From: Thermoanaerobaculia bacterium
GTDB taxonomy: Bacteria > Acidobacteriota > Thermoanaerobaculia > UBA5066 > Gp7-AA6
Direction: 5' to 3'
Assembly (NCBI GenBank): GCA_040879385.1
Contig: JBBDKM010000062.1
Location: forward strand, 4,707-68,706
Length of the DNA: 64,000 bases
Position numbers and translations under genes: made by a program. The notes beneath the pieces are model-generated. The model did not search any database and was not told the DNA's origin. It saw only the letters and a list, made by a program, of their open reading frames with translations. Below, piece after piece: positions 6,359 to 43,258 of the stretch. Each line of letters starts with the position of its first letter. The stretch's first letter is position 1.

Positions 6359-6360
6359 TC

Positions 6361-10517: not shown

Positions 10518-10558
10518 GCCCACTCTCCTTGAGCTTCGAGGTTGACCTGCGGCGATAG

Positions 10559-10631
10559 TCGGCCGAAGCGGGCGAAGTGTCAAGATGCGGCCATGAGCAA
10601 GACGGACACGGCGGGAGCAGAACGGGCCGGG
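10559..10631 (+). pseudogene. Remnant of the VKOR gene start (duplicate of ~12174-12246)
   Basis: gtgtcaagatgcggccATGagcaagacggacacggcgggagcagaacgggccggg versus gtgtcaagatccggccATGagcaagccgggcacggcggaagcggaacgggccggg. Confidence 0.8.
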
Positions 10632-23341: not shown

Positions 23342-24799
23342 TTACTTCGTCAGGCCCAGGTCCGACAGGATCTTCGGCTCCTGCTCCTCCATCGCGAGGA
23401 CCTCGTGGCACGCCGAGCAGTCGTCGGCGATGACGCGGCCATCGGCGCTCTTGTGCTTGCCGTCGTGACAGCGGAAGCAGCCCGGGAACTCCTCATGGCC
23501 GATGTTGTTCGGGTGGGTTCCCCAGGTGACCTTCATGTCCGGGAAGATGTTCCGGAGGTAGATCGCCTTGACCTGCTCGGCCGCCGTCTCGACCGCCGCC
23601 CGGAGGTTCTGGTAAGTCCCCGGGTACGTCGTCTTGTAGAAATCCACGACCGCCCGAGGGATCTTCTCGGAGGCCGTCGGCCGGTCCGGGTAGGCGGCGC
23701 GCAGCGCGGCCACCGCCTCTCTCTTGACGAACGGCAGGCCCTTGCTGATCCGGCCGTCGCTCATGGCCTGGTCGACGGCTCGCTCCGGCATCTCGAAGGC
23801 GTGGGTCGGCCGGTTGTGACAGTCCATGCAGTCCATCTTGCGCCGCTCGCCGCGGGAGAGCTGCTCCGGCGTCGCCGGGACCTCGGTCGAGACATATTCG
23901 ACGATCTTTCCGGCGTCGTCGATATAGGTCACGTGAGGGATGACCTGGCGGCGGCCGTCGGTCGAGACGTACTCGATGCGCTCGGCCGTGTCGAGGTGCC
24001 GGCCGTGAATGCCGACGAGGCCCTCCGCCGTCCGTCCCCCGATCTTCATGAGCAGCACGGTCGTCGCCGGCGTGTTCTTCTCGTCGTCGGCGTACTTCGT
24101 CCTCACGAGGAACTTGTCCCCGGTGAACTTCTGGGGCCAGTGGCAGTGCTCGCAGGTGTCCCGGGCCGGCCGCAGGTCGTGAACGGGAGAGGAGATCGGC
24201 TTGGAGTAGGTCTTGAAGGCGACGGCGAAGACCTGCCGCACTCCCGAGATCTTCGCCTTCACAAACCAGGGCGCCCCCGGCCCGATGTGGCACTCGACGC
24301 AGGACACCCGCGAGTGGGGAGAGTTGACGTAGGCGGTGTACTCCGGCGACATCACTGTGTGACAGGTCTGCCCGCAGAACTGGGCGGAGTCCATGTACTC
24401 CACGCTCTTGTACGAGGCCGTGCCCATGATCGCGAAGTTGGCGAACGTGAGGACGGCGACGAGCGCGAAGGCCCGGCGCAGAAACTGGCTGCGGAGGTCG
24501 ACCTTCGGGTACTCGCGCGGCAGCTCGCCCCGCGCGCGAAGCTTGCGCCGCTTGAGCCACACGCCGACCGGTATCAGGACGAGGCCGAGCGCGAAGACGC
24601 CCGGGAGGATCAGGAAGAAGACGATGCCGGTATAGGGATGCACCGGGCGCGCCTGGACGATGAGGTACACCCAGAATACGAGCAGCGTGACGGCCGCGCT
24701 CGTGGTCAGCACGACGCCGGTGAGGGAGATCGGGTTCTGGCCCAGGAACACGGCGGGCCGGAGCCGCGTCTCGAGCGTATTGCGGGAACCCTCGACCAT
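23342..24799 (-). CDS. imcH: ImcH-like NapC/NirT-family inner-membrane multiheme cytochrome
   Basis: Three N-terminal TM helices (NPISLTG...PYTGIVFFLILP); 6 heme motifs (CGQTCH, CVECH, CEHCH, CMDCH, CFRCH, CSACH). Confidence 0.8.
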   Translation of the reverse strand: MVEGSRNTLETRLRPAVFLGQNPISLTGVVLTTSAAVTLLVFWVYLIVQARPVHPYTGIVFFLILPGVFALGLVLIPVGVWLKRRKLRARGELPREYPKVDLRSQFLRRAFALVAVLTFANFAIMGTASYKSVEYMDSAQFCGQTCHTVMSPEYTAYVNSPHSRVSCVECHIGPGAPWFVKAKISGVRQVFAVAFKTYSKPISSPVHDLRPARDTCEHCHWPQKFTGDKFLVRTKYADDEKNTPATTVLLMKIGGRTAEGLVGIHGRHLDTAERIEYVSTDGRRQVIPHVTYIDDAGKIVEYVSTEVPATPEQLSRGERRKMDCMDCHNRPTHAFEMPERAVDQAMSDGRISKGLPFVKREAVAALRAAYPDRPTASEKIPRAVVDFYKTTYPGTYQNLRAAVETAAEQVKAIYLRNIFPDMKVTWGTHPNNIGHEEFPGCFRCHDGKHKSADGRVIADDCSACHEVLAMEEQEPKILSDLGLTK

Positions 24800-24857
24800 G
24801 CTGGGACCTCCTTGGCGTTCTTCTTCGGGAGTACCGGCGGCGGACGCGTTGGCCGGT

Positions 24858-25697
24858 CTAGGTTAGCAGCGCGAAGATCGTCAGCACAACGAGAGTCAGG
24901 CCGATGGCCACGGCCACGATGGCCGACACGTCGGCTCTCCGCAGAGCCCGCGGCGAGGGCGGATCCGCGCTGAGCGCGTCGAGGCCTCCGCTCGCCTGGA
25001 TCCGCGCGTACTCCGCGGGCCTCTCCGCGCGCAGCTCGTCTTCCGCGACGACGCCGGTGAAGATGACTCTGTCGACCGGGAACTTCTCCGGCCGCAGGTG
25101 GCTGTTGAAGAAGTGGATCGTGAAGATGAAGCTGACGGCGAGCAGCGCCTCTTCGCCGTGGATGAGGAGGGCCAGGTTGAAGACGGTCCCCGGCAGCACT
25201 CGGGTGAAGAACTGCGGAAACCAGAGGAGGAGGCCCGAGCCCCCGATGATCGCCATGCCCCAGAAGACCGCCCAGTAGTCGAACTTCTCCCAGTAGGTGT
25301 AGCGGTCGAACCGGGGCCGCGGGCCGAGGCCCAGGAACCAGCGGAAGTTCTGGTACATCTGGACGAGATCCCGGGGCTGCGGCACCAGGGAATCCGGGCC
25401 CCAGAGGATCCCCCAGTCCCGTCGGGCGACGAGGCGGTAGGCCAGCCGCGCCAGGTGCATGACGAAGCAGGCGAGTATTCCGGTCGCGAAGATCCGGTGC
25501 AGCAGGCCGGCGCCGCGAAAGCCGCCGAGCGCGTTCGCGAGGACGGCGGCCCAGCGGTGGGTCGAGAAGAAGAGCGGCAGGCCCGTCAGCGACAGGCCGA
25601 GGAACGTGACCATCATCAGGAAGTGAAGGAAGCGGTCGAAGGGATCGAACCGCTTCACATAGCGGCGGGCGGGGCCGGCCGCGGTTTCGCCGGTCAT
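24858..25697 (-). CDS. Diheme cytochrome b, FdnI-like (CbcL membrane domain-like)
   Basis: RFLHFLM, LLHRIFA, DRYTYWEKFDYWAVFWG, IHGEEALLA..FIFTIHF; start MTGET overlaps the upstream stop. Confidence 0.88.
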   Translation of the reverse strand: MTGETAAGPARRYVKRFDPFDRFLHFLMMVTFLGLSLTGLPLFFSTHRWAAVLANALGGFRGAGLLHRIFATGILACFVMHLARLAYRLVARRDWGILWGPDSLVPQPRDLVQMYQNFRWFLGLGPRPRFDRYTYWEKFDYWAVFWGMAIIGGSGLLLWFPQFFTRVLPGTVFNLALLIHGEEALLAVSFIFTIHFFNSHLRPEKFPVDRVIFTGVVAEDELRAERPAEYARIQASGGLDALSADPPSPRALRRADVSAIVAVAIGLTLVVLTIFALLT

Positions 25698-26944
25698 TCC
25701 TTCTCTTCCTTTTCTTCCTTGCGGGGGGGCTCGGGTTCTGGCTCCGCGTGCCGGGCGCGCCAGGAGCGCGGGAACCACAGCACCGTGTGCACGCCGAAGA
25801 ACGCCATGACGCCGATCACGAGCCACTTCATGAGGATCGCGACGTAGAAAAGAAGCGGGTTGCGCGCACGGTCCTTCGGGTTGGGATGCGGGTCGTAGCG
25901 GGCGAACTTCTCGTTGACCCCGGGGTGGCACTTCTGGCACGTGGCGACGCGCCGGGCAACGGAGACCGTCGAGCGCGGATCCGACGCGGGGAGAATGTTG
26001 TGCGCCTCGTGGCAGTCGGCGCAGGTCGCGATTCGCGCGAAGCCGAGATTCGTGACCTGTCCGTGATACGTGTCCCGGAAGGTCTCCTGGGACTGCGCGT
26101 GGCAGCTCCCGCATTCCCTGAGAACGTCCAGGCGCCAGGCCTCGACGTCCGCCCGGCGGATCGCGTGCGCCGTGTGGCAGTCGGTGCAGACGGGCGCGCG
26201 CGTGTCGCCGCTCGCGAAGAGAGTCCCGTGAATCCCCTCCGCGTAGAGCCGCTCGATCCCCTCGTGGCACGACCCGCAATTGGACGGGATGTTGCCGCGA
26301 AAGACCTTCGACACCGGGTCGGAGGAACGGCGAATGTCGTGAATGCCGTGACAGGTCTTGCAGTTGGGCGCCGTCACGAGGCCGCTCTTCAGCACGGCGC
26401 GGCCGTGGATGCTGTCCTCGTAGAGCGCGGCGACGTCGCCGATGGCGATCGGCCCATTGCGAATGGTCTCGGGGTCGCCGTGGCAGCGCGCGCAGGTGCC
26501 CGGGAGGTTCAGAGCGTAGGTCTGCGAGGCGGGGTCCTTGGCCGGGAGGATCTCGTGAGTCCCGTGGCAGTCCGCGCAGGAGGCCGCGATGGTGTTTCCG
26601 GTCTTTTGCCTCGCGGCCGCGTGGATGCTCTTCCGGTAATCGGCAACCGCGGCCTCGTGGCAGGTGGAGCACTGGGCCGGGGCGAGCCTTTCCGCGTGCG
26701 GAAAGTCGGCCGCCGCGGCGAGGTCGGCGTGACAGTCCACGCAGGCGAGGCCGGCCTGGCCGTGGACCGACGCCTCGAGCTTCGGAAGAGCCACGAAAAC
26801 CGTGCTGCCGTCGGCCCTCTTCGCGTCAGCCTCGCCGTGACAGGAGAAGCAGTCCTCATTCGAGGGCGGCTTGGGCTTTGCGCCCGGGCTCGCGAGGGCG
26901 AGGCCCGCGAACGACAGAGCCAGAGCTGCCGCCGCGATTCTCAC
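25694..26944 (-). CDS. Multiheme cytochrome c (11 hemes) with C-terminal TM helix (CbcL periplasmic domain-like)
   Basis: Signal peptide, 11 CxxCH motifs, repeated SIHG motifs, C-terminal TM helix. Confidence 0.88.
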   Translation of the reverse strand: MRIAAAALALSFAGLALASPGAKPKPPSNEDCFSCHGEADAKRADGSTVFVALPKLEASVHGQAGLACVDCHADLAAAADFPHAERLAPAQCSTCHEAAVADYRKSIHAAARQKTGNTIAASCADCHGTHEILPAKDPASQTYALNLPGTCARCHGDPETIRNGPIAIGDVAALYEDSIHGRAVLKSGLVTAPNCKTCHGIHDIRRSSDPVSKVFRGNIPSNCGSCHEGIERLYAEGIHGTLFASGDTRAPVCTDCHTAHAIRRADVEAWRLDVLRECGSCHAQSQETFRDTYHGQVTNLGFARIATCADCHEAHNILPASDPRSTVSVARRVATCQKCHPGVNEKFARYDPHPNPKDRARNPLLFYVAILMKWLVIGVMAFFGVHTVLWFPRSWRARHAEPEPEPPRKEEKEEKE

Positions 26945-27008
26945 TGGAACAGCCTTTCGGAGCGCGCCTCCCCGCCGACCGAGTCCGGCGGAGAAGCGTT
27001 GGGACGGG

Positions 27009-27296
27009 CTACTTCTTGTCGCCGGGGTAGTCCTTCAACCATGCGCCGTCGACCGCTTTAGCTCCCCGCTTTTCCTTTTCGGCGAGGAGCCACTTGCCGG
27101 CGTCGTTGGGAGCGTGCTTGTCCTTCTTGGGCAGGGCGTCGACGTGACAGTGCTGGCAGTTCTTCACGGCGACGCCCGCGGCCTTGGCCTGCTTCTGCTG
27201 GTCCAGCGTGGCCGACGAGATTCCGCTCAAGGCGATCCAGCCGCAACAGAAGAGAGTGATCGCGGAGAGCCCCAGCCGCGAGCTCTTGATCTGCAT
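27009..27296 (-). CDS. Small secreted monoheme cytochrome c (95 aa)
   Basis: AAGGAGG RBS, signal peptide, single CQHCH. Confidence 0.75.
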   Translation of the reverse strand: MQIKSSRLGLSAITLFCCGWIALSGISSATLDQQKQAKAAGVAVKNCQHCHVDALPKKDKHAPNDAGKWLLAEKEKRGAKAVDGAWLKDYPGDKK

Positions 27297-27322
27297 CGAG
27301 TCCTCCTTATTTCTTCGTCCGG

Positions 27323-29284
27323 TCACGGACGCCAGTGAAAGAAAACGCCGTAACGGTTCGCATTGTAGTTGGCGAGCGTCCCCGCCTGGTCGAAGGCGGG
27401 CTGCTCGCCGTACTTGTCCCACAGCCATTCCCCGGCGAGGCCGACGTGCTCGGTGACGAAGTACTCGGCCCGCACCCGCGTCCGGTTGACGGTGAACGGG
27501 ATGGAGCCGCCGTTCTCCATCCAGAGGTAGGCCCCGTCGAGAGAGAAACGCTGCCAGGCGACGATCAGGCCGCCCTCCCAGGTGTGTCCGATCTCCTTCT
27601 GCGCCGTCGGAACGATGTCGAAGTCCTGCGGCTCGCGGATCAGGATCTTGCGGTCGGCTTTGAACTCGCCGCCGGAGGCCCGCAACGTCACGAGGCCCTG
27701 GAGGAGCGTCACCTCGACGTCGGCGAGGAACTCGCGGAGCTTGGTGCTGTACCCGATCTCGACGACGTCGTCGTTCGCATGGGTTTCCCGGAACGTGCCA
27801 CCGAGACGGACCAGGTCCTTCCAGGACCAACCCGCCCGGAGCTTGTAGCGATCGCGATTGATGAAATCGGTCCGGAAGATCGGCGCGTCCGCCTTGTCGC
27901 GCCGGTAGTCGGCACCGAGAGTGAAGCCCCACTGGGAGAAGGTCAGGCCGCCGCCGTACGTGTTGACGGTGCGGCTGTACCGGCCCGGCTCCGTTCCCGC
28001 CGCGAGCACGCTCGAGAGCTCCGAGCCGAACGTCACGTCCTGCTGCAACTGAGACCATCCCGCGTTGACGGCCACGGGCCCGAGCGCGCGGGCCAGGATC
28101 TGCGCGTCGAAAGTGGTGTCCTGGCGCTTCAGGGATGTTTCGGTGCGGACGATCTCGAGCAGATCGCCCACGGGGACCCCGCCGAACGTCACGGCGTCGA
28201 TGAACAAGCTGGAGGCCAGCGCCGTGCCCTCGAGGGTGCGGCGTCGTTCGGCCCAGCCGCCGGTCAGGTCGACGTTGGGCAACAGGTTGACCTCGGCCCG
28301 CGCCGAGGCGCGCCAGAAGTCCGTGCGCGCCCGGGACTCGATTGTCTCCTCCAGGCCCGAGAAGAAGCGCGCGATCTGGAACGAGACGAAGTTGCCGGCG
28401 TCCGCTTCGACCGAGCTGGTGTCGCCGCTGGCGTCGGCGCGGACGTAGCTGCCGATGAGCTTGACGCGGGACAGCAGGCGTCCGGTGATCCAGACGCTCG
28501 TGACGGGGGTGTTGGTCTTGTTCTCGGTCGTGCGGGTGATCTCGTCGGCATTCACGTCCTGGCCGAGGATCGGACCGCTCCCGTTTCCGCCGCCCGCCCC
28601 CGACTGGAGCAACACGGTGTCGGTCCAGCGGTACCTTCGCCAGCCCTGCGTGACGGCGCCCTGGACCGGCCCCGCGTCGAAGGCGAGCCCGATCCGGTAC
28701 TCCTCGTCCTTCGCGCTGACGTGCTGGTCGAGGGCGAACTCATCGGCGCCGAGGTTGTAGGTCGTTCGCCCCGGGCCCTGGTAGACGTTGCGCGTGTACC
28801 CGAGGATGGGCGTGATCATTTTTCCGGGGAGGATCTGCAGGGTCACGTCGTAGACATCGCGCGTGCGGTTGTAGGTATGTTGACCCGGAATGATCCCCTC
28901 GCCGATGAACGGGTTCGCGAAGGCCGGGAGCGCGCTGTACATATCCGCACGCCGCCAGGAGAAGTCGAGTCGGAAGAGATTCTGCCGGCCGGCCGACAGG
29001 CGCAGCATGCCCGCGGGGCCCGCGCCCAGGTCGGAGGCATCGATCCGGAAGTCGTCGAGAACGCCGTCGAGCGGCCCGGTGGAGGCCCAGTGGAGCGATC
29101 GCAGGAGCAGGCCCGGCCGGTCGTTGATCTGGGTCCGGTACATCTGTTCGTTGCCGGAGACGTCCACGAACCGATAGCCCAGCTCGAACTCCGGCGCCGT
29201 CGCCTGCGCGGAGATGGCCGCGGCCACGAGCAGGCCGGCGGCGCAGGCGAGAGCGGTGTGCGGCGGGCGCGAGGCTTTCTTCAT
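27323..29284 (-). CDS. Outer-membrane beta-barrel partner of the decaheme cytochrome (MtrB-like porin)
   Basis: Signal peptide, ELGYRFVDVSGNEQMYR start, amphipathic beta strands, position after the mtrA-like gene. Confidence 0.8.
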   Translation of the reverse strand: MKKASRPPHTALACAAGLLVAAAISAQATAPEFELGYRFVDVSGNEQMYRTQINDRPGLLLRSLHWASTGPLDGVLDDFRIDASDLGAGPAGMLRLSAGRQNLFRLDFSWRRADMYSALPAFANPFIGEGIIPGQHTYNRTRDVYDVTLQILPGKMITPILGYTRNVYQGPGRTTYNLGADEFALDQHVSAKDEEYRIGLAFDAGPVQGAVTQGWRRYRWTDTVLLQSGAGGGNGSGPILGQDVNADEITRTTENKTNTPVTSVWITGRLLSRVKLIGSYVRADASGDTSSVEADAGNFVSFQIARFFSGLEETIESRARTDFWRASARAEVNLLPNVDLTGGWAERRRTLEGTALASSLFIDAVTFGGVPVGDLLEIVRTETSLKRQDTTFDAQILARALGPVAVNAGWSQLQQDVTFGSELSSVLAAGTEPGRYSRTVNTYGGGLTFSQWGFTLGADYRRDKADAPIFRTDFINRDRYKLRAGWSWKDLVRLGGTFRETHANDDVVEIGYSTKLREFLADVEVTLLQGLVTLRASGGEFKADRKILIREPQDFDIVPTAQKEIGHTWEGGLIVAWQRFSLDGAYLWMENGGSIPFTVNRTRVRAEYFVTEHVGLAGEWLWDKYGEQPAFDQAGTLANYNANRYGVFFHWRP

Positions 29285-29289
29285 GTCGT

Positions 29290-30210
29290 CTACTTCAGGA
29301 ACGCCGGGGACAGGTTCGACCCGTGGACGGCGAAGTGGCAGGTCGTGCAGTTGCGGTAGCGAGGCAGCGTCAGATCGTGGAACGACGGAGGCTGGGGCCC
29401 CGCGGTCCGCGGCCCGCCGGTCTGGGAGTGGCAGGAGAGGCAAAGCTGATCGACGCGCGCCCAGAGGAGCATCTTCGGATTGTTCGAGCCGTGAGACTCG
29501 TGACAGCTCAGGCAGTTGCCCGCGGAGCCCGTGACGTGGTCGAAGACGAAGGGGCCGCGCTTCTCGGCGTGACAGCTCATGCAGACGAGCTCGCCGTCTC
29601 GCGTCATCCGGACCGTCCGGCCCTTCCGGTCGTGGGGGTCGTGGCAGTCGACGCAGGCCATCCCGCCGCGGTCGAGGCGGTGCGCATAGGGCTTGTTGCG
29701 GAAGGAGGCCGAAACGCTCGAATGACAGGTTTCGCAGAGCGGCCCCGGGTCCTTCGCGAGCAGATGTGGGCTCTTCGGAGCGGCTTTATGGATCGCGTGA
29801 CAGCTCAGGCAGTTCACCGCGGGCGAGTTCGCGTGAAATCCCGTCGTGAACGACTCGTGCTCGTTGGTCTTGTCGTGGCAGGAGAGGCAGTTCTCGGCGC
29901 CCGTGAGGCCGTGGAAGCCCTGGATGAAGCCCTCGCCGCTGGCTTCGATGTGTTTCGCGCCGTCCCCGTGACAGGTGGTGCAGAAGTCCTCGATGTTCGG
30001 CTTCGCATCCCGGTGCGAGGAGCGAGCGTGCGGGTTGGCCGCGAACCCCTTGACCTGCGCCTCGTGGCAGTCGGCGCACCCGGGAAGCTCCGCCGCTGCG
30101 GGGACCGGAGCAGGCGCCGGGGTCGGAGTGGGTGTCTGCGCTCGAGCCGGGAGGGCGAGGCCCACGCCGGCAATCAGCGCCAAACCGATGAGCCTCACGA
30201 CTCTTTTCAC
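29290..30210 (-). CDS. mtrA: MtrA/DmsE-family decaheme cytochrome c
   Basis: 10 CxxCH motifs; HAEKRGPFVFDH and VHGSN signatures. Confidence 0.9.
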   Translation of the reverse strand: MKRVVRLIGLALIAGVGLALPARAQTPTPTPAPAPVPAAAELPGCADCHEAQVKGFAANPHARSSHRDAKPNIEDFCTTCHGDGAKHIEASGEGFIQGFHGLTGAENCLSCHDKTNEHESFTTGFHANSPAVNCLSCHAIHKAAPKSPHLLAKDPGPLCETCHSSVSASFRNKPYAHRLDRGGMACVDCHDPHDRKGRTVRMTRDGELVCMSCHAEKRGPFVFDHVTGSAGNCLSCHESHGSNNPKMLLWARVDQLCLSCHSQTGGPRTAGPQPPSFHDLTLPRYRNCTTCHFAVHGSNLSPAFLK

Positions 30211-30252
30211 ACTCCGACGTCCTCGAGACTCGCGGCGGTCACTGCGACCGCC

Positions 30253-32343
30253 CTACCGCGCGTGGGCCTTGTCGACCGAGAACTCCCCTTCGGGTCCGTG
30301 GCAAGCTCCGCAGGCTTCGCCGAAAGGCGCCGTCATGACGAAGGCGTGAGCGGCCTGGTGCTTCTCATCGTGGCAGCCCAGGCACGCGGCCGCGACCGGC
30401 TGCATCGGCGAGTACCAGTCGCGGAGCGTGATCGTCGGAATGCGAGTCGCGAGCAGGTCATCTTCCGGCACCTGCTGGGCGCCCGGGACATGGCACTTCT
30501 CGCAGTCGCGGCGGTCGCCGGGGAACCGCAGCTCGTTGTAGTTGTGGGCCGTCCCGCCGAACCCGTAGATCGTGAGGTCCTGGATCAGCTCCTCGCCGGT
30601 GTGGATGCGGTGGATCATGCGCTTGAAGTCGATCGACTCTTCGGGAGCCTGATCCGCGGGCCGCCGCGCGACGTCGCTCGCGTTGGGGTTGTGGCACATG
30701 ACGCATTCTTCGGTGTTGAACCGCTGGCCGCCGTGGAGCACGAGCCGGTCGTGGCAGGTGTTGCAGTTGGCCAGGTCCACGACGATGCGGCGGGGCTCCG
30801 GCGTGCCTCCGGAGAGGTTGGCGTAGTGGACGACGTTGAACGCTCCCTCGGTGAAGTTGGGCCCCTCCGGCGGCGCCGGATCGAGGACGACGGTCCGACG
30901 GGCCTCGATCGAGAAGGCCCACGTGCCCGTCGCGTCCTCCGGGATCGCGTTGGTGAAGGTGAAGGTCGCGGTCGTCCCGTCGAAGCTGGCGCCGTCGGCG
31001 CGCTCCCGCCTCGGGTTGATGGCGTAGTCGGTGGTGGGGCCGCCCATCAGGAGGTTCAGGTTGCTCGCCCCGGCGGCCGTCGTGAACGAGGCCGGCGACA
31101 CGGGCGTCCCGTCGTTCTCGAGGATCTTGAAGACGACGGTCGGCTTCTGGCCGGGCGCGGCGTTCGAAACCGACACGATCTCGGAGTTGAGCCCCTTCAA
31201 CTGCGTCGACTTGTAGGGCACGGTGTGCGCGCCCTGGATCGAGGCGTCGAACTCGCGGTCCCCCTGCGGCCGGTGGCAGGAGGCGCATTCCGAGTCATCG
31301 ACTTTGATTCCGGCCGGATGGTTCTCGCCGGTGGCGAAGTTGACGTCGTCGTGGCACGAGCCGCAGGCCGCGCGGGACGGGAACGTGTAGTAGTTGAACG
31401 CCTGCGTGGCCGGCGCCGCGTGGCAGGTCGTGCAGTTGCGGATGTCCTTCGGGAGGGAGACCGTCGAGTAGTCGTGGACCGATTGCTGGAAGCCGATGAT
31501 CTGGTACGGCGTGCCGGCCTCGACACTCGGCAGGTTCTCGCCCCGGTGGATCTTGTGCACCATGACCTTGAAGTCCAGGGTGTTGCCGGTGTCGGGATCG
31601 ACGGTCTGCGGCTGATGGCACGTCACGCAGAGCTTGACGTCCTGCCGGGAGCCGCCGTGCAGGGCAAGCGGGTTGTGACAGGTGTTGCAGGCGGCGGTTA
31701 CCGTCTTGTCCCAGACCTCGGTGACCGCGTCGCCGTCGGGGCGGAAGTCGTACTCCACGTTGGCGAAGTAGTTCTTCTCCTGGATCCCCGCCATGTTGCG
31801 CGTGGCGTAGATCGCCAGCGTGTGAGTCTTCGAGCCGTCGTAACCCTCGGGCAGCACCGTCCTGAACTTGTAGGTCGCGCGGCCGAGCTCGAGATCCGTC
31901 CACGTTCCGCCCGAATCCGCGGCGGCCTGCGTCGCCGAGTCGTTGGTGATCGGGCTCGTCTGGATCCGCGTCGTGTAGGCCGTGTAGTACCGGGTGCCCG
32001 CGTTCCACCAGGCGAGCACCTGGCTGATGCTGAGCGGTCCGGGCGTCACCTGCCCCAGGCGATCGAGCGGCTGATCGAAATCGTCGGTGAACGAGAGGTC
32101 GACCAGCGGGCGCCGGTCCTCGGGGATCGTGATGCTGTTGACCGTGATGAGGAAGCCCGGGCGAATGTAGCCGAACTCGTCGGCGGTCATGTAGAACTCT
32201 TTCGAGCTCTTCTCGTAGAGGGCCTGCGGATCCGCGTTGCCGCGCGGCCCGATCGTCCGCGTCAATCGTGTGTTGACCGTCGGCACGACCAGGAGAGAAC
32301 CGGCCGCCATCGCCATCACGAGTCTGCCACGCAGGGTTTTCAT
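30253..32343 (-). CDS. mtrC: OmcA/MtrC-family decaheme cytochrome c
   Basis: Two pentaheme blocks separated by beta domains; CNTCH..LALHGG.R, DFKVMVHKIH and DFKRMIHRIH signatures. Confidence 0.9.
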   Translation of the reverse strand: MKTLRGRLVMAMAAGSLLVVPTVNTRLTRTIGPRGNADPQALYEKSSKEFYMTADEFGYIRPGFLITVNSITIPEDRRPLVDLSFTDDFDQPLDRLGQVTPGPLSISQVLAWWNAGTRYYTAYTTRIQTSPITNDSATQAAADSGGTWTDLELGRATYKFRTVLPEGYDGSKTHTLAIYATRNMAGIQEKNYFANVEYDFRPDGDAVTEVWDKTVTAACNTCHNPLALHGGSRQDVKLCVTCHQPQTVDPDTGNTLDFKVMVHKIHRGENLPSVEAGTPYQIIGFQQSVHDYSTVSLPKDIRNCTTCHAAPATQAFNYYTFPSRAACGSCHDDVNFATGENHPAGIKVDDSECASCHRPQGDREFDASIQGAHTVPYKSTQLKGLNSEIVSVSNAAPGQKPTVVFKILENDGTPVSPASFTTAAGASNLNLLMGGPTTDYAINPRRERADGASFDGTTATFTFTNAIPEDATGTWAFSIEARRTVVLDPAPPEGPNFTEGAFNVVHYANLSGGTPEPRRIVVDLANCNTCHDRLVLHGGQRFNTEECVMCHNPNASDVARRPADQAPEESIDFKRMIHRIHTGEELIQDLTIYGFGGTAHNYNELRFPGDRRDCEKCHVPGAQQVPEDDLLATRIPTITLRDWYSPMQPVAAACLGCHDEKHQAAHAFVMTAPFGEACGACHGPEGEFSVDKAHAR

Positions 32344-32909
32344 GGCGCTGACCTCCTCGCCTCGAACCCGTTTCTTTCGGGATTCTTGCTTAAACTACTC
32401 CTCGGAGCGGGGTTCATGTCAAGCCTTCTCATTCTAACCGCCGCCGGATCACGATCCGTTTGGGCGGTTTGATCTTTTCGTTCGGTCACGACCACGTTTC
32501 TCCCGAGGACCTCATCGCAGAATCGTCCCAGCGCTTCGTTGGAGAACTCGTCCCAGCCGCGGCAGGCGCCGTGCGAGATCGTCTGCGCGTCGCAGGCGAG
32601 GCAGACGCGAAAACGAATCTGCTCGCCGAGCTGCCAGATGTTGGCGAGCTCCTCCATCTGTGCCCGCGTCAGGTGCGTGCTCTCTCCGATGATCGCCGTC
32701 CAGCGCTCGTGGAACTCGTGGTCGGGCCAGCGGCGGAATCCCCGACAGAAGATGCCCCGCTCCGCGGCGACCTGGCACATCGAGTGCTCTTCGTCCGACA
32801 GCTTCCGAAGCGAGCTGCGGAGCCGGTCGATCGCCTCCGGGCGAGCCCAGACCTCCGGCTGCCTGCCTGCGGCCGTGTTCCGGACGTTTGCACCGAATGT
32901 GCGGCTCAT
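32340..32909 (-). CDS. Hypothetical Cys/His-rich cytoplasmic protein (paralogue A)
   Basis: ATGA overlaps on both sides; aligns with 32906..33313. Confidence 0.75.
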   Translation of the reverse strand: MSRTFGANVRNTAAGRQPEVWARPEAIDRLRSSLRKLSDEEHSMCQVAAERGIFCRGFRRWPDHEFHERWTAIIGESTHLTRAQMEELANIWQLGEQIRFRVCLACDAQTISHGACRGWDEFSNEALGRFCDEVLGRNVVVTERKDQTAQTDRDPAAVRMRRLDMNPAPRSSLSKNPERNGFEARRSAP

Positions 32910-33313
32910 GGAGCGCTATCGATGACGACGTGACGTCCCGCGAGGTCCCGGCAGAAGTTCTCGAGCGCCTCGTTGTGGAACGTGTTCCAGCCGTCGCAGC
33001 TGTAGTGGTCGCGTGTCTCGACGTCGCAGCAGAGGGCGAAGCCTTCGACCTCCTGCCGCCCGAGATGGTACAGGCTGACGAGTCTCTCGAGCTCTTCGCG
33101 AGAGGCGTGGGGTCGCGTTCGCGCGATCCAGTGAAAGCGCTCGCGGAACTGCTGGTCCGAGAGTCCGCGGAGCCCTTTGCAGAACACGCCGAAGTGCGCC
33201 GCCGCCGCGCAGGCGCAATGCTCGTCGTCGCAGAGCGCCCGAAGGCGTTCGCGAATGACCGCCATCGCCTGCGGCCGGGACAGGTGTTCGGGCCCTGGCA
33301 GCGCCTGCTTCAT
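32906..33313 (-). CDS. Hypothetical Cys/His-rich cytoplasmic protein (paralogue B)
   Basis: Shares DxEHxxC, GxFCxG and CDxxTxxHxxCxGWxxFxNEALxxFC with the neighbouring gene. Confidence 0.75.
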   Translation of the reverse strand: MKQALPGPEHLSRPQAMAVIRERLRALCDDEHCACAAAAHFGVFCKGLRGLSDQQFRERFHWIARTRPHASREELERLVSLYHLGRQEVEGFALCCDVETRDHYSCDGWNTFHNEALENFCRDLAGRHVVIDSAP

Positions 33314-33347
33314 GAGCGGATCATGGCAACGCGGGGTCGGGCCCGCC

Positions 33348-33573
33348 TGATGCAATCGGATCAAATTTCGCGAATCGGGCGCGCGCCGCGGCGGAACCGG
33401 CGCCGCGGGGCCGGAAGGCAGGGACCCGCCGGTCGTCAACCGCCTGCGTTCGACGAGCGCTCGGCCGCGCGGCCCGGCAGTCCTCGATGGCCGCGCGGGC
33501 CGAGGCCTCTTCCTCGGACACCCGGTCGGTGCGGCCCGGCCCAGCGCCGCTGGTTTTTGATGTGTTCACATCA
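33348..33573. promoter_or_regulatory. Divergent promoter with two TGAT-N8-ATCA palindromes (33348-33363, 33558-33573)
   Basis: TGATGCAATCGGATCA and TGATGTGTTCACATCA between divergent genes. Confidence 0.65.
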
Positions 33574-33649
33574 GGCGAGAAACCGGCGCGGCTGGTATCA
33601 GGAAACCGTGAGATTGCCGATCGAAAAGTCGACCCGTGGGGGACGTGCG

Positions 33650-34087
33650 ATGAGGATTCTGGTCGCCACGGATGGGTCGCGGGCGGGTATCGCCGCGCTG
33701 AAGTTCGCAGCAAGGCTCGCCACCGGCGACCCGAAGGCTCAGCTGGTCGTGCTCACCGTGGATCCGAGCCCGAACGGCGGCCCCCCCGGGAAGGGCGGCC
33801 GGCGCAGCGACGCGCAGAAGGCGCTCGAGAGCGCGGCCAGACATGTGCGCCGCCCGGGTGGTCCGCCGACGCGGTTCCAGCTCGTTCCCGCCCGGCGGGT
33901 CGACGAGGTGCCCGACGTGATCTCGCGCGAGGCCGATCGCATGCGGGCCGACATGGTCGTGGTGGGAAGCGAAGGCCGGGACACGCTCAACGAGTGGATC
34001 GTGGGGGGCACGGCCCTCCGGCTGATCTACGTGGCCCGCCGGCCGGTGACCGTAGTCCGGGCGCCCCGCAAGCGCCAGACCCGCTGA
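33650..34087 (+). CDS. Universal stress protein
   Basis: MRILVATDGS...ADMVVVGSEG...VGGTALRL..PVTVVR. Confidence 0.9.
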   Translation: MRILVATDGSRAGIAALKFAARLATGDPKAQLVVLTVDPSPNGGPPGKGGRRSDAQKALESAARHVRRPGGPPTRFQLVPARRVDEVPDVISREADRMRADMVVVGSEGRDTLNEWIVGGTALRLIYVARRPVTVVRAPRKRQTR

Positions 34088-34164
34088 CGCGGGCTCGACC
34101 GATCCCGGCGCCACGCCGGCCCCACCGGCCGATCGGTGCTAGGCTTTCGGCTTCCGGTCCAGCC

Positions 34165-34821
34165 GTGCCACGCTCATCCGAAGCTCTCGACCGAATTGCC
34201 CGAAGCGGAGAGGCGGTCTTCGCCATCGACTCCGCCGATCGGATCATTCTCTGGAACAAGAAGTGCGAGGAGCTGCTCGGCCAACCGGCGCGCGCCGTTC
34301 TCGGCAAGCGCTGCGACGCCGTCATCGGCGGCCGCGACGAGAACGGCAACGTCTACTGCTACCGCAACTGCCCGGTCGCCTTCCAGGCCCGCGAGATGCC
34401 GAAGGAGCCGGTGCATCGCTTTCAGCTCTCGGTCCAGACGGGAAAGGGAGCCCGCCGGGCGATCGAGGTGTCCCTCTTCGCGATCTCCGCGTACCATCCG
34501 GCGCTTTCGACCGTCGTCCACGTTTTGCGGGACGGGAAACGCAAGACCTCCGCGCTCGAGTGCGAGCTGGCCGAGCACGCGCAGGTCCGCGAGCCGCTCT
34601 GGCCGATGGAAACCAGGGCGGGCCAGCCCATCGATCTGACGGCGCGCGAGAAGGAGATCCTGCGGTGCCTCGCCGAGGGAATGCCGACGGTGGCGATCGG
34701 AAAGAAGCTCTTCATCTCGCCGGTGACGGTGCGCAACCACATCCAGAACCTCCTGCACAAGCTGGACGTCCACACCAAGCTCGCCGCGATCGTTTTCGCC
34801 TACCAGCACGACCTGATCTGA
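34165..34821 (+). CDS. PAS-LuxR one-component transcriptional regulator
   Basis: PAS (AVFAID..DRIILWNK); LTAREKEILRCLAEG...LFISPVTVRNH HTH; same length as 61526..62182. Confidence 0.9.
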   Translation: MPRSSEALDRIARSGEAVFAIDSADRIILWNKKCEELLGQPARAVLGKRCDAVIGGRDENGNVYCYRNCPVAFQAREMPKEPVHRFQLSVQTGKGARRAIEVSLFAISAYHPALSTVVHVLRDGKRKTSALECELAEHAQVREPLWPMETRAGQPIDLTAREKEILRCLAEGMPTVAIGKKLFISPVTVRNHIQNLLHKLDVHTKLAAIVFAYQHDLI

Positions 34822-35670: not shown

Positions 35671-35949
35671 ATGAAAACGACCCGAAGGCAGTTCGCCAGG
35701 ATCGCCGGCGCCGCGGGGACCGGGGCGGCTCTCGGGAGGAAGGCCTTCGGTTTCCAGTGGCTCGAGCCCGTCGCCGTCGACAACCCGCTCGCGGCCTACC
35801 CGTCGTGTGACTGGGAGAAGGTCTACCGGGACCAGTACCGCTACGACTCCTCCTTCACCTGGGTGTGCTCACCCAACTGCACGCACGAATGCCGCTTGCG
35901 CGCCTTCGTCCGCAACGGCGTGTTCACGCGCGCCGAGATCCTGGAGTGA
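35671..35949 (+). pseudogene. nxrA: Truncated nxrA-like 5' fragment
   Basis: MKTTRRQF...CSPNCTHECRLRAFVRNGV is nearly identical to the 50642 gene, then stops after about 92 aa. Confidence 0.92.
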
Positions 35950-36118
35950 CCGCCCGGCGGCAGGATTTCCGGCGCCGGCAGTAACGACCGGAGATCTCGG
36001 TGTTTGGGTGGCACGGCGGGTTTCGGCGCCGCGGTTAGAATACGAACAGCCTGGCCGGAGGAGAGCGCCGGAGGAGAGCTCTGCCGAGATCCTGACGCAC
36101 GTCCAGGCGGCAAATCGG

Positions 36119-37432
36119 ATGAACACCGGCTCCCGGGAGGCTCGCTGGTTCTGGATCACGCTGCTGCTGTCGAGCATCAGCATCGTGGCGGTGGTCTTCG
36201 CTGCCTGGGAGCTGGTGGAGAGCCGGTTCTTCCGCGGGGTCGACTACCTGACTCTGCACTACCTCTACATCAGCCGGGGCATCATGTCTTCGCTCCTGCT
36301 CGCCGCGTGGGCCGCGTGGTACGTCCTGCGTGTCCGGCGCCGGAGCGAGGACGAGTTGCGTCGGTCGTGGGAGCATTACCGAAACCTCTTGGAGGCCTCC
36401 CCCGGCGCGGTCGCGCTTTTCGACTCGGATCTGCGGGTGACGGAGTGGAATGCCACGGCCGAACGACTCTATGGCTACAGCAAGCAACAGGTCCTCGGTC
36501 GCTCGCTGCCGACAGTGCCGGCGGACCGGGTCGAAGAGCTCCGCCAGCAGATGGAGCGCGTCCGGACGGGTCAACCGGTGGCAGATGTGGAAACACGTCG
36601 CGCGGATCGCGGCGAGACCAGCTTCGAGGTCCAGCTGAGCCTGCTGCCGTTCCGCGACTCGGCGGGGGAGGACCTCTTTTTGGAAGTGACCTCCGACATC
36701 CGCGAGCGGGTCCGCCTGCGGGAGCGCCTGTTGGAGATCGAGAAGCTGACGAGCATGGGCAAGATGGCGGCGGGGACGGCGCATCACTTGAACACGCCCC
36801 TGGCCGCGATGCTGCTGCGCGTTCAGATGATGCGCGAGCGCGCCCGCCACGCCCCGGTCCAGCCGGACCTCGAGCGGCTGGAGGGCGGCATCCTGTATTG
36901 CCAGCAGTTCGTCAGGCGGCTGCTCGAGTTCGGACGCCGGCCCGCGGCCCGCAAGGAGCCTCAGCCGATCGCCGGCTGCCTCTCCTCGGTCGTAGCCTTC
37001 CTGGCGCCGGCGCTCGACTCGAGGGGCGTCCGCGTCTCCCTCGACGTGGGCGCGGTCGACGGCGACCAGGTGCTCGCCGACCGCAACCTGCTCGAGGCCC
37101 TCTTGTTGATCCTTCTCTCCAACGCGCTCGACGCCGTTGCCGACGGGAGCAGCATCGACGTTCGGTGCCTCCGGGCGGGCGGGGAGCGCATCGAGATCCG
37201 GATCGCCGACGAGGGATGCGGCATCGCGCCGTCGCAGCTTCCCCACGTCTTCGAGCCGTTCTACACGACCAAGGGACCGGGCAAAGGCACCGGGCTCGGC
37301 CTCGCGATCGCACGCAACATCGTACTCGAGCACGGCGGCTCGATCCGCCTCGAAAGCGCGCCGGGTCGAGGGACGGTCGCCTCCGTCGAGCTGCCGGTCT
37401 GGGTCCCCGAGGCCGGGAAGGCGGCGCCGTGA
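36119..37432 (+). CDS. Membrane PAS sensor histidine kinase (NtrB-like)
   Basis: Two TM helices, PAS, H-box AHHLNTPL, NALDA, DEGCG, FYTTK..GTGLGL. Confidence 0.92.
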   Translation: MNTGSREARWFWITLLLSSISIVAVVFAAWELVESRFFRGVDYLTLHYLYISRGIMSSLLLAAWAAWYVLRVRRRSEDELRRSWEHYRNLLEASPGAVALFDSDLRVTEWNATAERLYGYSKQQVLGRSLPTVPADRVEELRQQMERVRTGQPVADVETRRADRGETSFEVQLSLLPFRDSAGEDLFLEVTSDIRERVRLRERLLEIEKLTSMGKMAAGTAHHLNTPLAAMLLRVQMMRERARHAPVQPDLERLEGGILYCQQFVRRLLEFGRRPAARKEPQPIAGCLSSVVAFLAPALDSRGVRVSLDVGAVDGDQVLADRNLLEALLLILLSNALDAVADGSSIDVRCLRAGGERIEIRIADEGCGIAPSQLPHVFEPFYTTKGPGKGTGLGLAIARNIVLEHGGSIRLESAPGRGTVASVELPVWVPEAGKAAP

Positions 37433-38808
37433 GCTCCTCCTTCGCGCCGCACCCCTGCGGCATCCTCGTGGTGGACGACGACGCACGGCTCGCCGCGACG
37501 CTTCAGGAGCTGCTGGTCGGGGAGGGCTACGCCGTCGAGGTGGCTCTCTCGGCGGCGGAAGCGCTCGTGGTCCAGGAGCGCAACCCTTCCATCGCGGTCG
37601 CGCTCGTCGACCTGATCATGCCGGTCACCGACGGCCTGACGCTCTTGGACGAGCTCCACCGCCGTGATCCCGACCTGGCCGTCGTGGTCATGACCGGCTA
37701 CGGCACGATCGAAACCGCCGTGGAGGCGATCAAGCGGGGCGCGGAGGACTATCTCACCAAGCCGATGGACTCGCACGCGCTGCGCAAGAAGGTGGCGCGG
37801 CTGGTGGAGGTCTTCGAGTTGCGGGAGCGCGTGCGGCAGCTCGAAGCCAATCTCGACCGGGCCCCGTGTTTCGAGACGATCGTCTCGGTCTCGCCCCCGA
37901 TGCTCCGGGCCATCGAGCGCGCGCAGACCGTCGCCGCAACCGAGGCCTCGGTGCTGCTGGTGGGCGAGACCGGGACGGGCAAGGAACTGATGGCCAGGGC
38001 GATCCATGCGGCCAGCCCCCGGGCCGCCCGCCCCTTCCTCGCGGTCAACTGTGGCGCGATCCCTCGCGAGCTCGTCGAGAGCGAGCTGTTCGGGGTCCGC
38101 CGGGGCGCGTTCACCGGTGCCTACGCGGATACGCCCGGCATCTTCGCGGCGGCCACCGGGGGGACGGTGTTTCTCGACGAGATCGGGGAAATGCCGAAAG
38201 AAGCGCAGGTCAAGCTGTTGCGGGTGCTCCAGGAGGGAGAGCTGCGGCCCGTCGGCAGCGCGAAGGCCGTGCATGTCGACGTACGCATCGTCGCGGCGTC
38301 CAACCGTCCCCTCGCGGCGTTACGAGACGAGCATCTGCGGCCGGATCTCTACTTCCGGATCGCCACCGTCGTCATCGAGCTGCCCCCTCTGCGGGTGCGG
38401 CCGGAGGACGTGCTCGTGCTGGCGCACTCTTTGGTCGGCCGGATCTCGCGCCGCACGGGCCGCAAGATCACGCTGGCCCGTTCCGCGGTGGACCTGCTCG
38501 TCAACTCCTCTTTTCCCGGCAACGTGCGCGAGCTCGATAACGTCCTGGAGAGCGCGACCACGCTCTCGCGGGACGACCCGCACGTCATCACCGAGAAGGA
38601 CCTGGCCCCTCTCCTGCGCCAATCCGAGGGCGCCCCGCTGCCCGGTCGCTTCGGCGAGCAGGCGCTCTCTCTCGAGACTTTGGAGCGTGCGGCGATCGAG
38701 CAGGCTCTACGCCTTTGCCGGGGCAACCGCACGCGCGCGTCCTCCCTGCTCGGCATCTCCCGCGACACGCTCCACCGCAAGTTGCGTCAGTACCACCAGG
38801 AGGGCTGA
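37429..38808 (+). CDS. Sigma54-dependent response regulator (NtrC family)
   Basis: Receiver domain, GETGTGKE, GAFTGA, Fis HTH. Confidence 0.95.
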   Translation: MSSSFAPHPCGILVVDDDARLAATLQELLVGEGYAVEVALSAAEALVVQERNPSIAVALVDLIMPVTDGLTLLDELHRRDPDLAVVVMTGYGTIETAVEAIKRGAEDYLTKPMDSHALRKKVARLVEVFELRERVRQLEANLDRAPCFETIVSVSPPMLRAIERAQTVAATEASVLLVGETGTGKELMARAIHAASPRAARPFLAVNCGAIPRELVESELFGVRRGAFTGAYADTPGIFAAATGGTVFLDEIGEMPKEAQVKLLRVLQEGELRPVGSAKAVHVDVRIVAASNRPLAALRDEHLRPDLYFRIATVVIELPPLRVRPEDVLVLAHSLVGRISRRTGRKITLARSAVDLLVNSSFPGNVRELDNVLESATTLSRDDPHVITEKDLAPLLRQSEGAPLPGRFGEQALSLETLERAAIEQALRLCRGNRTRASSLLGISRDTLHRKLRQYHQEG

Positions 38809-38995: not shown

Positions 38996-39011
38996 TGGCA
39001 GATGGCGTGCA
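38996..39011 (+). promoter_or_regulatory. Putative sigma54 -24/-12 promoter
   Basis: TGGCAGATGGCGTGCA (GG-N10-GC), between the NtrC-family gene and the cytochrome operon. Confidence 0.55.
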
Positions 39012-39037
39012 AAGGAGCAGGCCTGGAAAACGGTTCC

Positions 39038-40282: not shown

Positions 40283-40806
40283 CCGAGGGCCGTGGTCGGT
40301 GGGTGGCGCCCGCTCTCGGGTTTCTCATTCCCTTCACGATCACGGCGGCGGTGGTCGCCTTGCTTCCCCACCACGGGCCGACAAAGCCGGTCCGCCAGCC
40401 GATCGCCTTCAACCACCGCAAGCACGTCGAGGAGGCCTCGCTGACCTGTTCGACCTGCCACCAGTTCTACGAGACGGAGGCTTTCTCCGGCCTTCCGGCT
40501 GCCGACGTCTGCGCGATGTGCCACCTCGAGCCGCAGGGCAAGAGCGCCGAGGAGCGCGAGCTCGTCCGATTGCTGAAGGCGGGCGCGCCGCTCGACTGGA
40601 AGCCGCTCTTCCGCCAGCCTCCCCACGTGTTCTCGTCGCATCGGCGCCATGTCGTGGTGGCCAAGCTCGACTGCCCGGTCTGCCACGGAGAGATCGGGAA
40701 GAGCACGCAGCCGCCGCTGCGGGTGCGGCGCCTGGTCATGCAGGACTGCATCGACTGCCACCGCCGCAGCGGCGCGGCGGCGGAGTGCACGACGTGTCAC
40801 CGATGA
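40279..40806 (+). CDS. Pentaheme cytochrome c (QrcA/ActA-like)
   Basis: TM helix, QPIAFNHRKH, HVFSSHRRH, 5 CxxCH motifs. Confidence 0.88.
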   Translation: MTEGRGRWVAPALGFLIPFTITAAVVALLPHHGPTKPVRQPIAFNHRKHVEEASLTCSTCHQFYETEAFSGLPAADVCAMCHLEPQGKSAEERELVRLLKAGAPLDWKPLFRQPPHVFSSHRRHVVVAKLDCPVCHGEIGKSTQPPLRVRRLVMQDCIDCHRRSGAAAECTTCHR

Positions 40807-40825
40807 GCGATTTCGGGAGCGTGTG

Positions 40826-43255: not shown

Positions 43256-43258
43256 GCG

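Follow-up and report, generated by a model that had tools for sequence, protein, structure and literature searches.

The window analyzed here is a 64,000-nucleotide (nt) stretch of the genome of a Thermoanaerobaculia bacterium (phylum Acidobacteriota; GenBank assembly GCA_040879385.1), and the system of interest within it is an operon of nine co-oriented minus-strand genes, g1 to g9 (window positions 23342-33439), in which genes for an MtrC/MtrA/MtrB-like conduit stand beside genes for two inner-membrane cytochromes that resemble ImcH and CbcL. The window lies on contig C62 of a 3.41-Mb assembly (96 contigs, 95.6% complete). Its G+C content is 65-72% throughout, and close homologues carry the labels Thermoanaerobaculia or Acidobacteriota. 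The genes, with lengths in amino acids (aa), are as follows.

32906..33439, minus strand: g1, twin-CX9C protein (cytoplasmic, orphan family), with a 4-nt overlap between its stop and the start of g2
32340..32909, minus strand: g2, paralogous twin-CX9C protein of 189 aa, with a 4-nt overlap between its stop and the start of mtrC
30253..32343, minus strand: g3 (mtrC), OmcA/MtrC-family decaheme cytochrome, 696 aa; TIGR03507, PF22113, and ten CXXCH motifs
29290..30210, minus strand: g4 (mtrA), MtrA/DmsE-like periplasmic decaheme cytochrome, 306 aa, with a signal peptide; ten CXXCH motifs and a PDB match
27323..29284, minus strand: g5, predicted outer-membrane 26-strand β-barrel, 653 aa, a very divergent candidate MtrB-like sheath; structural model and fold match
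27009..27296, minus strand: g6, monoheme c-type cytochrome, 95-aa precursor, identified by its CQHCH motif
25694..26944, minus strand: g7, predicted c subunit of a split CbcL-type cytochrome, 416 aa, with 11 CXXCH motifs and a C-terminal transmembrane (TM) helix (residues 362-394) containing the conserved H386
24858..25697, minus strand: g8, predicted b subunit, 279 aa from ATG 25697, with five TM helices; FdnI/cytochrome b561-like (PF01292)
23342..24799, minus strand: g9, predicted ImcH-family inner-membrane cytochrome, 485 aa, with three TM helices, six heme motifs, and a PF03264 match

The genes are tightly packed. The intergenic gaps from g1 to g9 are -4, -4, 42, 5, 26, 64, -4, and 58 nt, counted with ATG 29284 as the start of g5 and ATG 25697 as the start of g8, and AGGAGG-like ribosome-binding sites precede mtrC, the monoheme gene, and the imcH-like gene. 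An earlier note, made from the sequence letters, had described nine co-oriented genes in 23342..33313 and had given all of them places in the cell envelope. The nine-gene operon is confirmed. Its end at 33313 corresponds to an alternative ATG start that would give a g1 of 135 aa, and the longer g1 of 177 aa reaches TTG 33439; the envelope assignment fails for g1 and g2, which are cytoplasmic and belong to an unrecognized family. For the comparisons below, a scan of species-representative genomes with g3 provided 76 loci, which were searched by tblastn with all nine operon proteins. Synteny counts therefore cover genomes found through MtrC, and they are lower bounds because many loci are cut by contig ends.

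The g9 product has three hydropathy segments (residues 23-51, 52-84, and 106-126), a CX3CH motif (CGQTCH) at residue 142, and CXXCH motifs at residues 167, 216, 324, 441, and 461; residues 114-199 match the NapC/NirT family (PF03264) with 32.8 bits, above the cut-off of 24.1. ImcH was defined by three helices, NapC/NirT homology, and seven heme motifs with CXXXCH as the first (Levar et al. 2014), and members of the family have an atypical CX3CH motif beside the membrane domain and, after it, five to nine CX2CH motifs (Levar 2014; Zhong and Shi 2018). The Geobacter sulfurreducens ImcH, GSU3259, is 507 aa long with motifs at residues 132, 156, 205, 311, 428, 448, and 486 (Zhong and Shi 2018 Table S3), and its published TM helices are at 13-35, 45-67, and 100-122. 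From one motif to the next, g9 has steps of 25, 49, 108, 117, and 20 residues, compared with 24, 49, 106, 117, and 20 as published for GSU3259. The same table gives the six-motif form for 9 of 11 Acidobacteria entries, including OFV85478.1, and one such entry, of 489 aa, has its motifs at 144, 168, 217, 327, 444, and 465. Both GSU3259 and this six-motif acidobacterial entry thus have almost the spacing of g9. In addition, residues 21-473 of g9 are 43-44% identical to seven-motif open reading frames (ORFs) of 501-506 aa from six genomes of another phylum, which was reached through locus L040 and comprised 120 genomes. Because of the three helices, the NapC/NirT match, the motif spacing, and this identity, we file g9 in the ImcH family, probably as a six-heme form that lacks the C-terminal motif of the seven in GSU3259; GSU3259 itself entered the comparison through its published motif positions alone. 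The ImcH reading had already been proposed in the earlier note, and the helices, the leading CX3CH motif, the NapC/NirT-like region, and the near-identical spacing all agree with it. The sole other gene of the NapC/NirT family above the Pfam cut-off in this assembly is nrfH, which adjoins an nrfA-like gene.

The g7 and g8 products are predicted to form a CbcL-type bc cytochrome as two polypeptides. The b subunit matches PF01292 with 38 bits (cut-off 30.1), and a 4-nt overlap (ATGA) joins its start to the g7 stop. Longer relatives of g8 number 2556 proteins at E ≤ 0.001; among the matches listed, all 120 fused relatives are colinear with g7 over their first ~400 residues (36-55% identity), the final ~275 residues of all 120 correspond to g8 (50-59% identity), and 59 of them contain 11 heme motifs. 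The 11 proximal His residues, 11 further His residues of the c domain, H386 of g7, and six His residues of g8 are each kept in 53-55 of 55 fused relatives. In the 280-aa numbering of g8, helix 2 contains H26, helix 3 contains H68 and H82, and helix 5 contains H181 and H196, with H201 conserved as well; counted together with H386 of g7 in helix 1, the six helices have a His pattern of 1-1-(1 to 2)-0-2. The published CbcL has a single His per helix in helices 1-3 and a pair in helix 5 (10.1101/2021.04.15.440034), and the CbcL/MtrH/MtoC family is described as a c domain with 3-23 CX2CH motifs followed by a b-type membrane domain of, usually, six helices (Zhong and Shi 2018). Like CbcL (GSU0274), the g7-g8 pair begins with an N-terminal multiheme c domain and continues with six helices, whose His residues are placed as published. 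Unlike the published CbcL, which has nine hemes in 619 aa, the pair has 11 hemes and is split after the first helix rather than forming the single polypeptide of the family. The colinearity with all 120 listed fusions and the six-helix His pattern bear out the "split CbcL" of the earlier note, and we regard g7 plus g8 as probably a CbcL-type protein, widespread as a fusion, that is split here, CbcL itself having been compared by its description alone.

CbcBA consists of a four-helix CbcB and a seven-heme CbcA with a C-terminal helix, and it is stated to have no sequence homology to CbcL (10.1101/2021.04.15.440034). The five helices of g8, the 11 hemes of g7, and the colinearity with six-helix fusions rule out CbcBA as the identity of the pair. 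A frameshift or assembly error at the g7/g8 junction is likewise ruled out. The same split with an ATGA overlap occurs in six other species-level genomes (L007, L015, L021, L055, L063, and L067), and contigs from three other studies bridge the junction with no indel listed there, so the split is real. The cbcL-like gene is fused in 10 other loci; in four loci from Bryobacteraceae the fused protein has nine hemes and a length of 565-643 aa.

Turning to the outer-membrane side, g4 was taken for an MtrA-like protein in the earlier note, and its closest PDB relative is indeed the MtrA chain of the Mtr complex (6r2q_A, E 3.4e-28). The adjacent barrel gene, g5, whose start lies 5 nt past mtrA, is less easily placed, and its sequence speaks against an MtrB identity at several points: it has no match to the Pfam family MtrB_PioB (PF11854) even at E ≤ 1, a PDB sequence search found nothing similar, and BLASTP against the canonical MtrB encoded elsewhere in the window gave a best E of 0.05, that is, no similarity. 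Alignment of a profile of g5 relatives (n = 23) with a canonical MtrB profile (n = 8) by hhalign covered 546 columns, end to end, with a probability of 72.8% and an E of 3.2e-5, which is only moderate support. The AlphaFold2 (AF2) model of g5 (predicted local distance difference test score, pLDDT, 78.8) has 26 strands, which we take to be the strand number of MtrB. The top match of the model in a Foldseek search of the PDB is MtrB (6r2q_B, E 7.7e-14, TM-scores 0.64/0.65), and the next matches are TonB-dependent receptors with TM-scores of ~0.45. The distant g5 relatives from Bryobacteraceae loci L030 and L037 pass PF11854 weakly (30.1 and 33.6 bits; cut-off 23). Barrels of the g5 type accompany acidobacterial loci and canonical MtrB accompanies proteobacterial loci. 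On the evidence of the profile alignment, the Bryobacteraceae relatives, and the model, g5 is predicted to be an MtrB-type barrel despite the failing sequence searches, so that its description as a "Shewanella-type" porin holds for the fold but not for the sequence family.

The small cytochrome encoded by g6 has no relative in Pfam, NCBIfam, or the PDB (best PDB E 0.11), and it is present in all 12 complete loci whose MtrC is at least 60% identical to g3. From its position and size, it is presumed to be a periplasmic shuttle.

The assignment of g3 to the MtrC family is firm: it scores 489.5 bits against TIGR03507 (cut-off 209.3) and 181 bits against PF22113, the model of MtrC/MtrF domains II/IV, and its closest PDB relative is MtrF (3pmq, E 1.4e-34). 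The ten CXXCH motifs are arranged as 5 + 5, at residues 219-353 and 527-678. The protein contains 20 Cys residues, every one in a CXXCH motif, and its N-terminus (MKTLRGRLVMAMAAGSLLVVPTVNT...) is Cys-free up to the first Cys at residue 219; g3 therefore has neither a lipobox nor a CXnC pair. This inventory agrees with the earlier note, which had recorded the missing lipobox Cys and disulfide. Both absences are traits of the clade and no peculiarity of this protein. Among the full-length ten-heme homologues, which are found in 60 of the 76 loci and form the base of these tallies, a lipobox-like motif in the first 50 residues occurs in 0/16 proteins at ≥60% identity to g3, 0/10 at 48-59%, 3/15 at 39-47%, and 17/19 below 39%; a non-heme Cys beyond residue 50 occurs in 2/16, 1/10, 6/15, and 8/19, respectively. 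The absence of the lipobox from 26 of 26 full-length homologues at ≥48% identity marks it as a stable lineage trait of a conserved ten-heme, four-domain protein. Soluble variants of Shewanella MtrC are exported.

In Shewanella MtrC, the CX8C pair of domain III lowers the affinity for flavin mononucleotide (FMN) and the formation of peroxide under oxygen, as described in a study that made use of a "soluble form" of the protein (PMC9973256). Since g3 lacks the pair, no such flavin/oxygen switch is predicted for it; an MtrC without the switch would suit a strict anaerobe or flavin-independent transfer. As a separate observation, the segment that follows the hydrophobic core of the signal peptide has, in place of an AXA site, a P-x-x-[NS]-x-R motif (for example, VVPTVNTR or ILPMSNTR; window 32270-32343 for the g3 N-terminus). 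The motif is present in the MtrC of loci L004, L006, L008-L013, L016, L026, L027, and L052, and a second group of homologues has ALVPLSTGGP at the same place. The P-x-x-[NS]-x-R motif may be an unusual processing or sorting signal.

The earlier note had called the operon a hybrid. The synteny survey shows that it is not a singular one: mtrC-mtrA-barrel together with cbcL-like and imcH-like genes recurs across Acidobacteriota and in one metagenome-assembled genome (MAG) of Pseudomonadales. In 6 loci the stretch from mtrC to imcH (g3-g9) is colinear, and the g7, g8, and g9 proteins have identities of 72-81%. Of the 76 loci, 26, mostly from Acidobacteriota, contain an ImcH-like gene; when the count is limited to loci in which mtrC has 8 kb or more of sequence on each side, the frequency is 8/12 at MtrC identities ≥60%, 4/5 at 48-59%, 6/9 at 39-47%, and 1/9 below 39%. 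The exception among the distant loci, L075, is the Pseudomonadales MAG and contains cbcL-like, imcH-like, mtrA, canonical mtrB, and mtrC genes. Of the 26 loci with an ImcH-like gene, 18 also contain a g8-like (b-type) match. Whenever an ORF was called for each of the two genes, the imcH-like gene immediately followed the cbcL-like gene, and they frequently overlapped by 4 nt; this adjacency was seen in Thermoanaerobaculia, Bryobacteraceae, and the Pseudomonadales MAG. On four MAG contigs labeled Bryobacteraceae (L030, L031, L034, and L037), a fused nine-heme cbcL-like gene and an imcH-like gene with a 4-nt overlap are located divergently upstream of mtrC-mtrA-barrel, and the imcH-like products are 51-53% identical to g9. 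Among 301 sampled genomes of the class, 139 have an MtrC homologue (E ≤ 1e-30), a tally that includes G300 (flagged unpublished); within the genus, 16 of the 19 other genomes have one.

A multiheme ORF stands directly ahead of the ImcH-like ORF in 3 of 7 short loci as well. These are L087, L088, and L093 (genomes G001, G002, and G008), whose ImcH-type ORFs have seven motifs and 502-506 aa; the adjacency therefore reaches beyond Acidobacteriota. In Desulfuromonas acetexigens, the accession numbers of the ImcH homologue and the CbcL homologue are likewise consecutive (PMC12133095).

The operon shares with Shewanella MtrCAB (PDB 6R2Q, 4LM8, and 3PMQ) the order mtrC, mtrA, barrel, a 5 + 5 decaheme MtrC-family protein, a ten-heme MtrA-like protein, and a 26-strand barrel. 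Unlike the Shewanella system, it has no CymA and would have ImcH-type and CbcL-type proteins on the quinol side; its MtrC-family protein lacks the lipobox and the domain-III CX8C pair, its barrel is unrecognized by Pfam MtrB_PioB, and it contains an extra monoheme gene and two twin-CX9C genes. In contrast to G. sulfurreducens, where imcH is monocistronic (Levar et al. 2014), the imcH-like and cbcL-like genes adjoin one another within an mtr operon. The mtrH/mtoC clusters of Rhodoferax ferrireducens, Dechloromonas aromatica, and Gallionella capsiferriformans are similar in that a CbcL-family gene stands together with genes of the mtrAB type and for small cytochromes, among them the monoheme MtoD, but they contain no imcH, and the operon studied here has imcH and a split CbcL-type gene (Zhong and Shi 2018). 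According to the same paper, no mtrAB or mtoAB was found adjacent to imcH. The Group 5 "Acidobacteriia" mtrCAB is likewise acidobacterial and has a small periplasmic cytochrome gene past mtrB (Baker et al. 2022, PMC8805035). That paper reports that Group 5 mtrCAB has no inner-membrane quinone oxidoreductase nearby; ImcH and CbcL are unmentioned in it, and its class list does not include Thermoanaerobaculia. The Bryobacteraceae contigs L030, L031, L034, and L037, whose barrels are distant relatives of g5, do have cbcL-like and imcH-like genes by mtrC. No paper describing mtr-imcH linkage was found in the open-access literature or bioRxiv. The parts of the operon are thus of known kinds, and their combination is common in relatives and undescribed in the literature found.

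On balance, and with somewhat more confidence than doubt, we read the operon as a single-operon extracellular electron transfer (EET) pathway, most likely for respiration of insoluble Fe(III)/Mn(IV); as judged from its sequence, it seems to encode every heme protein needed to connect the quinone pool with extracellular minerals. At the inner membrane, menaquinol would be oxidized by two co-encoded cytochromes, the six-heme ImcH-family protein and the CbcL-type bc cytochrome, the latter made up of an 11-heme c subunit, whose C-terminal helix would supply one b-heme His, and a five-helix b subunit. Electrons would then cross the periplasm, probably via the small monoheme cytochrome, enter the MtrA-like decaheme protein threaded through the 26-strand MtrB-like barrel, and exit via a surface MtrC-family decaheme cytochrome that is not anchored by lipid. 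Alongside the gene content, the families or folds of the parts, the tight operon, and its conserved arrangement, which are observed, we infer in which direction the electrons flow, what the monoheme cytochrome does, and that MtrC is exposed at the surface. Within the class, the cultured Thermoanaerobaculum aquaticum has been cited as reducing Fe(III), and a MAG of this species is credited with one MtrC and two MtrA (PMC9671151, PMC8787282); MtrABC genes in such a MAG are noted in PMC9671151. By analogy with G. sulfurreducens, it is plausible that the ImcH-type and CbcL-type modules serve different potentials, in which case the conduit would work across a range of potentials as inferred in the earlier note; the cbcL-imcH adjacency, often with a 4-nt overlap, fits joint action equally well.

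Several results weigh against this reading, in addition to the sequence results for the barrel and the published-data level of the comparisons with GSU3259 and CbcL given above. The g4 protein scores 187.4 bits against TIGR03508 (DmsE/MtrA), slightly under the cut-off of 192.2. The TM helices of g7, g8, and g9 were called with a crude 19-residue hydropathy window. The signal peptide of g3 has no obvious AXA site, and since the lipobox is missing too, surface export of g3 can only be presumed; the two secretin-family ORFs of the assembly are each under the GspD cut-off. The dataset search listed no RNA dataset with operon DNA. Finally, the direction of flow is unreadable from sequence, because relatives of CbcL/MtoC are found in Fe(II) oxidizers and the second MtrA/MtrB pair of the window has no MtrC.

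The foregoing synteny also bears on how the two inner-membrane modules might work. It is unlikely, in our judgment, that the CbcL-type and ImcH-type cytochromes are one unit, a complex or an obligate series that acts as a single quinol:periplasm oxidoreductase, although the linkage gives this idea some substance: the g8-like match in 18 of 26 ImcH-like loci, the cbcL-like gene directly upstream, often with a 4-nt overlap, across three groups, the multiheme ORF in 3 of 7 short loci, and the consecutive accessions of D. acetexigens (PMC12133095) all contrast with the monocistronic imcH of G. sulfurreducens (Levar et al. 2014). However, ImcH and CbcL of G. sulfurreducens, in the published accounts, each support respiration alone within their own potential window, 8 of the 26 ImcH-like loci have no g8-like match in the stretch examined, and adjacency by itself is no proof of binding. 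A complex prediction with g7 (residues 250-416), g8, and g9 scored 0.00 against a mark of 0.32, which is no evidence either way.

The conduit could also run inward or in both directions, with the CbcL-type module passing electrons from Fe(II) or another extracellular donor to the quinone pool, a role that has been proposed for the MtoC of Mto clusters. Homologues of CbcL/MtrH/MtoC do occur in the mtoAB clusters of Fe(II) oxidizers, and the family has been implicated in both directions (Zhong and Shi 2018). Within the window, a type II DMSO-reductase-family enzyme, an alternative complex III-like complex, and the second MtrA/MtrB pair, beside a cytochrome b/c pair, point to a versatile respiratory chain. 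We nonetheless consider an inward or bidirectional conduit improbable. The operon contains an MtrC-family cytochrome, and Pio systems are not known to have one. The mto clusters as described comprise mtoA, mtoB, mtoC, and mtoD with no mtrC, and ImcH has so far been implicated solely in quinol oxidation and found solely in Fe(III) reducers (Zhong and Shi 2018); moreover, the cultured relative T. aquaticum is cited as an Fe(III) reducer. That the MtrC-like protein is not surface exposed, the acceptors being soluble, periplasmic, or shuttles rather than minerals directly, is highly improbable, for although the lipobox is missing, an odd P-x-x-N-x-R is conserved past the signal-peptide hydrophobic core, and a type II secretion system is not assignable (two secretins below the GspD cut-off), the gene order is the canonical mtrC-mtrA-barrel, the barrel has the predicted MtrB fold, and the absence of the lipobox is common to 26 of 26 full-length homologues at ≥48% identity, that is, a lineage trait.

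An outward, single-operon EET pathway thus remains our preferred reading. EET is usually annotated from Shewanella, with CymA and a lipoprotein MtrC, and from Geobacter, with ImcH, CbcL, and porin-cytochrome complexes, and this operon joins both. The linkage runs counter to two surveys that shape annotation (Zhong and Shi 2018; Baker et al. 2022). Acidobacteriota, in which the arrangement is common, are abundant in soils and sediments, and screens based on hidden Markov models will overlook the g5-type barrel. If our reading is true, the Fe/Mn-reducing capacity of Acidobacteriota is under-counted, a natural MtrC without lipid anchor or Cys pair would offer a ready comparison for the Shewanella flavin/oxygen switch model, and the natural split of the CbcL-type protein would provide a biochemical handle on a family that is hard to purify. 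A wider proposition, which we put forward tentatively and regard as doubtful, is that cbcL-imcH is an old mobile module encoding a single quinol-oxidizing complex and that, together with a lipid- and disulfide-free MtrC, Pfam-invisible barrels, and iron-linked twin-CX9C proteins, it would define a distinct acidobacterial EET class that is widespread in soils, sediments, and permafrost and missed by searches with Mtr or Geobacter markers.

The twin-CX9C proteins that open the operon are paralogues, with four Cys residues invariant in their alignment (C45, C55, C106, and C116 in g2 numbering). Neither has a signal peptide or a match in Pfam or NCBIfam, and a search of 1.84 billion proteins found only 181 representatives of the family (E ≤ 1e-3). 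The AF2 model of g2 is helical (pLDDT 77); Foldseek gave no match in the PDB at E ≤ 0.001, the best Z in a wide VIA-align search (4.5) was within noise, and a protein atlas search of g2 gave nothing usable. Twelve of the 76 loci have one or more copies immediately upstream of mtrC, and in a thirteenth, L043, a copy is ~7.5 kb off on the opposite strand. The third copy of the genome (L086:8530-8988, corresponding to G000:C14:170583-170981) follows feoB and a gene for a DtxR-type Fe_dep_repr_C+FeoA fusion, a position that suggests a link of these proteins to iron. Our guess is that g1 and g2, which are translationally coupled to mtrC, have an iron- or redox-linked accessory or regulatory role.

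The operon is flanked by the following genes.

87 nt downstream of the operon, minus strand: P-type ATPase
33617-34821, plus strand, upstream and divergent: universal stress protein and PAS-LuxR regulator
35807-38808, plus strand, beyond the PAS-LuxR regulator: PAS histidine kinase and sigma-54-dependent response regulator

A scan for the sigma-54 consensus gave 12 matches, compared with 14.7 expected by chance, and none upstream of the operon; scans for sigma-70 promoters and terminators gave nothing that exceeds chance. The window contains several further respiratory genes.

1312-2550, minus strand: cytochrome c, downstream of the second MtrA/MtrB pair
2552-3889, minus strand: cytochrome b, downstream of the second MtrA/MtrB pair
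4415-6613: GltD-like Fe-S flavoprotein, downstream of the second MtrA/MtrB pair
7251-9611, minus strand: canonical MtrB/PioB barrel (Pfam, 288 bits)
9624-10583, minus strand: second MtrA-like decaheme cytochrome, with no MtrC alongside
39002-47107, plus strand: alternative complex III-like set (cytochrome c, molybdopterin-family protein, 4Fe-4S protein, NrfD-type membrane subunit, and multiheme and c554-like cytochromes)
50642-56319, plus strand: type II DMSO-reductase-family enzyme, Fe-S subunit, and NarJ-like chaperone

The second MtrA/MtrB set looks like Mto/Pio.

DNA of the operon is not confined to this assembly. A single 8,050-nt contig from another study covers 25269-33313, and near-identical DNA is present in soil and permafrost metagenomes from at least three other studies. 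One near-identical permafrost contig, X10, has a 1-nt insertion at 32433, in the non-conserved C-terminal tail of g2, and a net 3-nt deletion in mtrC (30459-30464); the remaining listed indels are intergenic.

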